A stretch of 45,486 bases of DNA from a virus (IMGVR_UViG_2597489870_000005), one strand, 5' to 3'; shown: positions 29,401 to 31,259, counted from the stretch's first letter. Notes: generated from the sequence alone by a model not told the origin. Translations and numbers: made by a program.

Positions 29401-29510
29401 AACCCCACCTCGCAGACAAAGCGGGTGTAAATTGAGGGAATACTACGAAACGTAACAGACTCGGAGTCAGTGAATAACTCAGGTATTGGGTTATCAGCTA
29501 ATATCGAGAC

Positions 29511-29545
29511 TCAAAAAATGGAAAAACCCGCTCGACGGCGGGTTT
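29511..29545 (-). terminator. Rho-independent terminator upstream of holin gene on late strand
   Basis: Perfect 8-bp stem aaacccgc/gcgggttt with loop tcgacg, then U-tract on minus strand. Confidence 0.65.
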
Positions 29546-29972
29546 AAGCTGTGTGACGAAGTAACCACTCTTAACAGCATAACCAATTTTTTACGTACGT
29601 AAACCACTAAATGATATTTGCGAGAATGCTACCGAGTATTGAAAACACCACTACAAATACATAAGCAAATCTCAACAAATAACCAACAAATAATTTCCAG
29701 TGTTATTTTTAGCCGGTTTAAATTGAACCTTCAAATTATAGAGCACTTATAAATAACAGCCGTTAATATAAATTGGCTAATAGATTTATTTTTATTCAGC
29801 CAAGAGCCATGAATAGGATTCGATAGAAAAAAGTTCAGATAAAAATAGAGATCTACTTCACAAATCAAACGAGAAACCAAAACTTACATCTTGAAATAAT
29901 CACATTGATTAGATGAATATTTATCGCGCAGTGACATCATTTTTTAATAATAGTTCAAAAAAAGGGCTCACG

Positions 29973-31070
29973 ATGAAAAAATTAACAGTGGCAATTTCTG
30001 CTGTAGCTGCATCAGTACTGATGGCGATGTCTGCTCAGGCAGCTGAAATTTATAATAAAGACAGTAACAAGCTGGATCTGTACGGGAAAGTTAATGCTAA
30101 GCACTACTTCTCCTCTAATGATGCAGATGATGGTGATACTACTTATGCCCGTCTTGGCTTCAAAGGTGAAACCCAAATCAACGATCAACTGACTGGTTTC
30201 GGTCAGTGGGAATATGAATTCAAAGGCAACCGCGCTGAATCTCAAGGTTCCTCCAAAGATAAAACCCGTCTTGCCTTCGCTGGCCTGAAATTCGGTGACT
30301 ACGGCTCCATCGATTACGGCCGTAACTACGGTGTAGCATACGACATCGGTGCGTGGACTGACGTCCTGCCAGAATTCGGTGGTGACACTTGGACTCAAAC
30401 CGACGTGTTCATGACTCAACGTGCAACTGGTGTTGCAACCTATCGTAACAACGACTTCTTTGGTCTGGTTGATGGTCTGAACTTTGCTGCTCAGTACCAA
30501 GGCAAAAACGATCGTAGCGATTTCGATAACTACACTGAAGGTAACGGTGATGGCTTCGGTTTCTCTGCTACCTATGAATACGAAGGATTCGGTATCGGTG
30601 CAACTTATGCGAAATCTGATCGTACCGACACTCAAGTTAATGCAGGGAAAGTTCTTCCTGAAGTATTTGCTTCCGGTAAAAATGCAGAAGTTTGGGCCGC
30701 AGGTCTGAAATATGACGCTAACAACATTTACCTGGCCACTACCTATTCTGAAACCCAGAATATGACTGTATTTGCTGATCACTTCGTTGCTAATAAAGCC
30801 CAAAACTTCGAAGCTGTTGCACAATATCAGTTCGATTTCGGTCTGCGTCCGTCCGTTGCTTACCTGCAATCTAAAGGTAAGGATCTTGGAGTATGGGGCG
30901 ATCAGGACTTAGTCAAATATGTTGATGTAGGTGCAACCTATTACTTCAACAAAAATATGTCTACTTTCGTTGATTACAAAATCAACCTGCTTGACAAAAA
31001 TGACTTCACTAAAGCACTCGGTGTAAGCACTGATGACATCGTTGCTGTAGGTCTGGTTTACCAGTTCTAA
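29973..31070 (+). CDS. nmpC: Outer-membrane porin NmpC/OmpD-like, intact
   Basis: 365 aa from [23 protein letters not shown] signal peptide; porin C-terminus ...VGLVYQF; lies between Q and holin as in DLP12. Confidence 0.85.
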
Positions 31071-31086
31071 TCTGATTACGAAAAAG

Positions 31087-31168
31087 ATATGTTGCGGGAG
31101 GCGTTGCCTCCCCAACATATAAGTGGCTCCCTCAAGCCACTTCCTTTAGAAGCACAACCTTGCTTCTA
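31087..31168. terminator. Cluster of three hairpins between convergent porin and Q genes (bidirectional terminator; tR'-like on minus strand)
   Basis: Hairpin A 31087-31120 (core gggaggc/gcctccc, minus-strand U-tract), hairpin B 31121-31142 (aagtggct/agccactt), hairpin C 31147-31168 (tagaagca/tgcttcta). Confidence 0.6.
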
Positions 31169-31170
31169 AC

Positions 31171-31259
31171 TATATAAACCTTCTGTTATATATTACCCTT
31201 TATTTTTGGGGGCGTCTCAACGCCCCATTTTTAATAATTTTTAGTAAACAATTGGCATA
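31171..31259 (-). promoter_or_regulatory. Putative late promoter pR' / qut region
   Basis: Position only: between Q stop and the tR'-like hairpin 140-170 nt downstream; no confident -35/-10 assignment. Confidence 0.3.
31209..31233 (+). terminator. Hairpin with U-tract on plus strand just downstream of Q stop
   Basis: Stem ggggcg/cgcccc with loop tctcaa, followed by auuuuuaa. Confidence 0.4.

Follow-up and report, generated by a model that had tools for sequence, protein, structure and literature searches.

A prophage lc/nmpC porin cassette probably situated between the antiterminator gene Q and its late promoter

The lc/nmpC porin cassette of a lambdoid prophage probably lies between the antiterminator gene Q and its target, the late promoter pR', in which case late transcription would begin beyond the porin and would have no need to pass through it. 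The prophage was studied in a viral DNA stretch of 45,486 nucleotides (IMGVR_UViG_2597489870_000005; the window), in which a spacer of 1859 bp (29401-31259) runs exactly from the holin start to the Q stop codon, and holds one long plus-strand ORF, the porin (Table 1). On the minus strand, rusA, ylcG, and Q lie upstream of this spacer, and the genes for a phage-21-type holin, lysozyme, and Rz lie downstream. The porin is placed outside the late path because Q is homologous to the Q proteins of Stx phages, because a promoter module lies distal to the porin, and because the spacer next to Q is linked to the porin. A first-pass annotation had concluded that late transcription has to traverse some 1.7 kb of antisense porin DNA, together with two or more terminators; the presence of a Stx-type pR' module at 29603-29514 (minus strand), on the holin side of the porin, argues against that conclusion.

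Table 1. Features of the Q-holin region of the window, with the evidence for each
Feature	Position	Strand	Evidence
Holin, phage 21 S type, 71 aa; first gene of the late (lysis) operon	29185..29400	-	Pfam Phage_holin_2_1, E 2e-35; RefSeq essD
pR' initial transcribed region, followed by the putative tR'	29514..29572	-	Homology; hairpin from terminator scan
Putative late promoter pR'	29576..29603	-	Collinear with the annotated pR' of 933W, VT2-Sakai, and Ss-VASD
AT-rich porin regulatory region and 5' UTR	29605..29972	+	29% GC; relaxed hexamer scan; PA-2 annotation mapped; 88-100% conserved in 7 phages
Porin gene, lc/nmpC type	29973..31070 (end includes stop codon)	+	Pfam Porin_1 match; identity to PA-2 Lc; RefSeq WP_000737280.1 "porin"
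Porin 3' UTR, presumably corresponding to ipeX	31071..31232	+	Identical to PA-2 and 434B; structured; ends in intrinsic terminator
Bulged 15-bp hairpin (31087-31120) and U run (31081-31085)	31081..31120	-	Fold dG -21.3 kcal/mol, z -4.8; 0 of 200 shuffles as stable
Porin intrinsic terminator	Hairpin 31209-31226, U run 31228-31232 (five U)	+	Terminator scan
Antiterminator Q, QuuD type, 127 aa	31260..31643	-	Pfam PF06530 (Phage_antitermQ), E 4e-53

The porin gene and its relatives

By its sequence, the element is the long-known prophage outer-membrane porin gene, called lc in PA-2 and nmpC in E. coli K-12, and it is intact here. Near-identity to these genes, together with a position between Q and the holin gene and an orientation convergent with Q, identify it as the known lysogenic-conversion porin cassette of lambdoid phages, which is very common and ordinary. 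The original lc sequence (PA-2, J02580.1) has the same gene in the same place and orientation; its DNA is 97% identical throughout the 1859-bp spacer, and its 3' UTR does not differ. The PA-2 Lc protein is identical to the window porin at 361 of 365 residues (98.9%), the four differences being R99H, Q149G, A151T, and V154F (window residue first). Upstream of the holin gene, PA-2 differs from the window by 16 extra bases and a few substitutions, one of them in a hairpin stem. The spacer of phage 434B is 99.8% identical to that of the window outside an IS5 insertion, and the K-12 cryptic prophage DLP12 (qsr') carries the same cassette between quuD and essD, with nmpC split by IS5B. In both 434B and K-12, IS5 breaks the reading frame past codon 346, and the gene is silent, whereas the window gene is uninterrupted; comparison with K-12 nmpC thus bears out the first-pass statement that the DLP12 copy is disrupted and the present one is not. 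More than 30 further sequenced coliphages match the spacer at 87-99% identity, and at least 80% of it was found in one place in 2465 of 5426 complete E. coli genomes. No base differs between the window and the chromosome of ETEC H10407 over all 36,086 positions compared; in that chromosome, the prophage adjoins ybhC (RefSeq).

The ORF, strand, and length of the porin proved to be as first annotated: a plus-strand protein of 365 aa with a signal peptide, encoded between Q and the holin gene and convergent with Q. The signal peptide has 23 aa (29973-30041). An upstream ATG at 29913 in the ORF listing would give a 385-aa version, and the start of the 365-aa version is the one adopted by both RefSeq and the PA-2 record. 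The protein matches Pfam Porin_1 (PF00267) over profile positions 1-337 of 337 (E 4.7e-157, 523 bits). Solved mature chains of the general porins OmpC, OmpK36, PhoE, and OmpF (for example 2XE2, 1OSM, 2J1N) align end to end with residues 24-365 (E 1e-137 to 1e-109; 4e-137 for the OmpC structures), and residue 24 falls opposite the first residue of mature OmpC, as expected if the 23-aa signal peptide annotated for Lc is cleaved off. The translation has the PEFGG constriction-loop motif (as LPEFGGD) and ends in an aromatic residue (...VYQF); the motif and the C-terminal Phe are common to the solved porins. From this homology, the protein is a member of the general bacterial porin family, of the OmpC/OmpF/PhoE type, and is predicted to form a 16-stranded, trimeric beta-barrel that conducts solutes. 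Unlike OmpC, OmpK36, PhoE, and OmpF, the window porin is borne on a prophage rather than on the core genome, and its alleles vary in short patches.

Differences among seven phage alleles of the porin were found mainly in 30391-30420, 30511-30540, 30631-30660, and 30991-31020 (56-81% column identity), and the non-coding flanks of the gene were 88-100% conserved in the same alleles. These patches probably correspond to loops at the cell surface that are subject to diversifying selection. A 69-aa ORF antisense to the 3' end of the porin gene (30909-31118, minus strand), annotated as ORF1 in PA-2, gave no match in Pfam and overlaps a hairpin in the Q direction; it was treated as probably non-coding.

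The composition and distribution of the cassette fit those of a moron, an autonomous cargo unit in a phage genome, with a predicted promoter region and a terminator of its own, an unlike base composition, and absence from related phages. The GC content is 29% in the region upstream of the porin, versus 46-55% for the lysis genes and the rusA region, and about 330 phages, of which those inspected carry a related Q, have the promoter module but not the cassette. A repeat search revealed no meaningful repeats and no target-site duplication around the cassette.

Several further elements were recorded elsewhere in the window. A trkG potassium-transporter gene (26632-28107, minus strand; Pfam TrkH, RefSeq TrkG) directly follows Rz in the orientation of the late operon; its GC content is only 31-41%, and it represents a second piece of cargo in the window, as in the K-12 Rac prophage. 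The replication protein gene (about 34975-35807) and the tail tube gene (about 14840-15801) of the prophage are annotated as frameshifted in RefSeq, and the prophage may be defective. Two Rfam families scored above the gathering threshold, IS009 (44-242, minus strand, 225 bits) and the lambda cIII thermoregulator element (39874-39932, plus strand, 88.5 bits).

The late-promoter module and the hairpin before the holin gene

The window Q protein and the Q proteins of the Stx phages compared belong to the same family, PF06530; the solved Q21 protein is a distant match. The window protein is 77% identical to Q of 933W and 80% identical to that of Ss-VASD, with identity ending near codon 120, and the genes share 75-81% nucleotide identity over 31311-31645. 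In 933W, VT2-Sakai, and Ss-VASD, an annotated putative pR', a putative qut, and a rho-independent hairpin start at the Q end, overlapping the last Q codons. This Stx-phage module aligns collinearly with 29603-29514 (minus strand) of the window, on the holin side of the porin. The candidate promoter consists of a -35 hexamer TTTACG (29603-29598) and a -10 hexamer TATGCT (29581-29576), separated by a 16-nt spacer, and the two hexamers match the consensus at eight of 12 positions. Transcription would start near 29569; the pR' start mapped in strain Sakai lies 7 nt past the annotated -10 hexamer on the phage sequence. The predicted initial transcribed region includes AAGAGTGGTTAC (29572-29561), which is unique in the window and is present once in 13 of the 14 phage loci compared, and a putative equivalent of qut (29562-29555), which matches the 933W octamer at five of eight positions and differs at three. 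A hairpin stem (29545-29524) and a T run (29523-29514) follow. The features held in common with the three Stx phages are thus the TTTACG -35 hexamer, the 16-nt spacer, a -10 hexamer of the form TAT..T, AAGAGTGGTTAC, and a CCCGC...GCGGG hairpin with a T run. The difference lies in the placement, since the module overlaps the 3' end of Q in the Stx phages and is followed there by a second terminator at +258, whereas in the window it lies 1.65 kb from Q. With a cognate Q upstream and collinearity with a mapped pR', the window has what would be expected of the Q-dependent late-promoter module of phages with a PF06530-type Q.

The first-pass annotation had reported a minus-strand, terminator-like hairpin at 29511-29545, just before the holin gene, and had regarded it as one of the terminators that bracket the porin. 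The hairpin is real, but its assignment has to be revised: as part of a module collinear with the pR'-tR' segment of Stx phages, it is most likely the late-operon terminator tR', rather than a bracket of the porin. Its identification, like that of the other terminators described here, rests on homology and conservation, as the number of terminators found by the scan (three) was not above that in shuffled sequences (2.3 +/- 1.7). The hairpin region of the module is 96-98% identical in phages cdtI and SfIV. According to differential RNA-seq of strain Sakai, the primary pR' start lies 258 nt before the 3' end of tR', and the pR' RNA, whose 3' end is at +258, ends at a second terminator and not at the first hairpin. 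By analogy with this mapped 3' end, the conserved hairpin of the window (29545-29524) may terminate poorly. Folding of the 175-nt leader and the terminator scan revealed no second terminator-like structure between the predicted start and the holin gene.

The distribution of the module was examined by BLAST. About 330 phages that have no porin match the spacer only at 29522-29604, a stretch that opens with the -35 hexamer and closes no more than a few bases from the hairpin foot, and the Stx phages sampled among these matches carry the module next to Q. One of two CRP sites annotated in the 1986 PA-2 record, corresponding to 29549-29569, is the reverse complement of the conserved 933W-type pR' initial transcribed region (AGTGGTTACTTCGTCACACAG), and its TGTGA half-site is not conserved in 933W.

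The Q-proximal spacer and the porin transcript

The region between the porin and Q contains a second structure in the Q direction, a bulged minus-strand hairpin 140-180 nt past Q, which the terminator scan missed because of the bulge (Table 1). It would end the early (Q) transcript and thereby shield the convergent porin gene from read-through. The first-pass annotation implied a different arrangement, in which transcription antisense to the porin continues into the holin gene. On such a reading, pR' would lie directly downstream of Q, within 31120-31259 (minus strand), and the bulged hairpin would act as tR'; Q-modified polymerase would also pass the hairpin at 29545-29524, and the 933W-like module would be an inactive relic. 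Such a position would agree with that of pR' in lambda and the Stx phages, where the promoter adjoins the Q gene, and Q-modified polymerase of lambda ignores terminators over many kilobases. A minus-strand TTGAGA/TAATAT pair (nine of 12 consensus positions) does adjoin Q, and the strong hairpin with its U run follows about 65 nt downstream. The two hexamers, however, are 19 nt apart, a strict scan of the 189-bp Q-proximal spacer (31071-31259) revealed no promoter match at normal spacing, and the -35 hexamer and the spacer of the pair lie inside the porin's own terminator hairpin. Every phage with the 189-bp spacer, moreover, also bears the porin, and homologous Q genes that lack the porin are never accompanied by this spacer; what goes along with this Q family, in about 330 phages, is the distal module. 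A start next to Q is therefore considered unlikely. An alignment of the Q-porin spacer with the sequence after Q in Lambda_2E9 was also made, and its local score, only 19, was judged not meaningful.

The plus-strand transcript that enters the same region would be made from the AT-rich regulatory region of the porin. The best, and weak, candidate promoter in a relaxed hexamer scan is the pair TTGAAA (29891-29896) and GAATAT (29915-29920), and the other CRP site annotated in PA-2 (misc_binding 1363-1383) maps by alignment to 29845-29865. At the opposite end of the gene, the 3' UTR folds far better than shuffled sequences (dG -53.9, z -7.5), and the segment 31050-31270 is 100% identical to PA-2 and 434B. 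This 3' UTR presumably corresponds to ipeX and stops 27 nt before the Q stop codon. In reviews, ipeX is a PA-2 RNA that reduces OmpC and OmpF by a mechanism that does not involve base-pairing. No Rfam family was found for the 3' UTR or the leader, in searches of the whole window at the gathering threshold and of 29350-31300 at E<=1; the latter returned only sub-threshold chance matches (Trp_leader, 20.8 bits, and SNORD123).

The regulatory region of the porin may also hold a start site in the late direction. A published reporter of the DLP12 lysis operon, described as "-121 to +650", was located by mapping its primers to window positions 30045 and about 29275; besides the porin-holin spacer, its insert extends only 73 nt into the porin gene and into the beginning of the holin gene, a choice of fragment that accords with a late start beyond the porin. 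These positions imply a published, sigma-E-dependent start near 29924 (minus strand), within the porin promoter region, from which transcripts would read to the holin gene through the pR' module. The lysis genes might then be transcribed mainly from this host-controlled promoter, with Q-dependent late transcription a vestige in a defective prophage. The frameshifts in the replication and tail tube genes would agree with this, as would the literature on DLP12, in which the lysis operon is controlled by RpoE, Hha, and Q. As the main source of late transcripts, such a promoter is nonetheless very improbable, since the plaque-forming phages PA-2, 434B, mEp332, and ev243 carry the same cassette and module and need a working late promoter, and since a transcript from 29924 would still meet the hairpin at 29545-29524. 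The implied start, like the distal pR', is downstream of most of the porin gene in the late direction, and the two can coexist; a sigma-E-dependent start need not replace pR'.

The favoured explanation, that Q acts at a pR' beyond the porin, can be put as follows, with promoter activity, termination at the hairpins, and the action of Q at the module predicted from homology, position, and conservation. A cassette of roughly 29605-31310 would have been inserted between the Q gene and pR', replacing the last seven or so Q codons. It would form an autonomous unit, expressed from the prophage, with an AT-rich promoter region, an OmpC-family porin, a structured 3' UTR (ipeX), and its own terminator; the porin would add a general diffusion pore, and the 3' UTR RNA, according to the literature, would lower OmpC. 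The terminators at 31081-31120 (minus strand) and 31209-31232 (plus strand) would hold the convergent Q and porin units apart. RNA polymerase would start near 29569 and, without Q, would stop at the hairpin and T run (29545-29514) that form tR', while Q-modified polymerase would continue into the genes for holin, endolysin, and spanin. Early in lytic growth, N-modified early transcripts from pR would nevertheless traverse the porin in the antisense direction.

Cargo between Q and the module in other phages

Genes between Q and the module were also found in other phages. In cdtI, two convergent genes occupy this interval, with about 23 nt from the Q stop to the cargo stop, and in PhiR55_1 a single convergent gene lies 84 nt from Q. 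The gap in SfIV contains two convergent genes and, in the Q direction, an IS transposase gene; that in Lambda_2E9, between Q and the promoter core, contains a convergent gene for a Blc lipocalin and, in the Q direction, a YbgA-like gene. The short distances in cdtI and PhiR55_1 mean that pR' cannot adjoin Q there, and the lack of room for a Q-proximal promoter in these similarly laid-out phages further argues against a start next to Q in the window. Past the module, all annotated genes in the stretches examined of the four phages (holin, methylase, tRNAs, stx) are co-oriented with late transcription. Convergent cargo before the module and late-direction genes after it are what one would predict for a module that is the late promoter and a gap outside the late operon.

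Lambda_2E9 initially appeared to be a counter-example, as its Q is 84% identical and AAGAGTGGTTAC is absent. This was set aside when a 933W-like promoter core, TTTACA-ATCGTAAAAACTTCAC-TATGAT, was found 1.9 kb downstream of Q. Lambda_2E9 also has a terminator in the Q direction between Q and the convergent cargo, analogous to that at 31081-31120 in the window. This terminator, about 100 nt after Q (AGCCAGCCTCCCCAAAGGCTGG followed by T8; 503-526 of its locus, L015), resembles the mapped tR' hairpin of VT2-Sakai (GCCAGCCTCCCCCAGTGGCTGGC followed by T6; 871-899 of locus L007), and the pR'-like promoter (2282-2309 of L015) sits 1.9 kb beyond it. Terminator and promoter modules appear, from these sequences, to have been reshuffled.

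It is conceivable, if unlikely, that the gap between Q and pR' serves phages with a PF06530-type Q as a slot for mostly convergent cargo that is expressed during lysogeny (porin, lipocalin, DUF6731), and that porin transcription damps the expression of Q and the reverse. The 3' end of ipeX and that of the Q mRNA, if the latter terminates at 31081-31120, would overlap by about 150 nt. A model for such interference is the lambda paQ antisense RNA, which damps Q expression. Through mutual damping of this kind, if true, lysogenic conversion and the lysis decision would become linked.

An intact Lc/NmpC gives the lysogen an additional diffusion channel, which can alter antibiotic uptake and the availability of phage receptors, and ipeX is predicted here to be able to lower OmpC. 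In the literature, nmpC is a quiescent prophage porin, silent in K-12 owing to the insertion, and its reactivation leads to higher cefotaxime permeability. The first-pass suggestion that the lysogen may gain an extra general porin therefore coincides with the textbook role of Lc/NmpC. Knowledge of these effects dates from the 1970s-2000s, and nearly half of complete E. coli genomes carry the cassette. The addition made here is a modest one, a corrected transcription map, in which the late promoter of phages with a PF06530-type Q can sit 0.6-2.6 kb from Q with cargo between them. If this map is true, the porin, and the IS insertions within it, would lie outside the path of late transcription.
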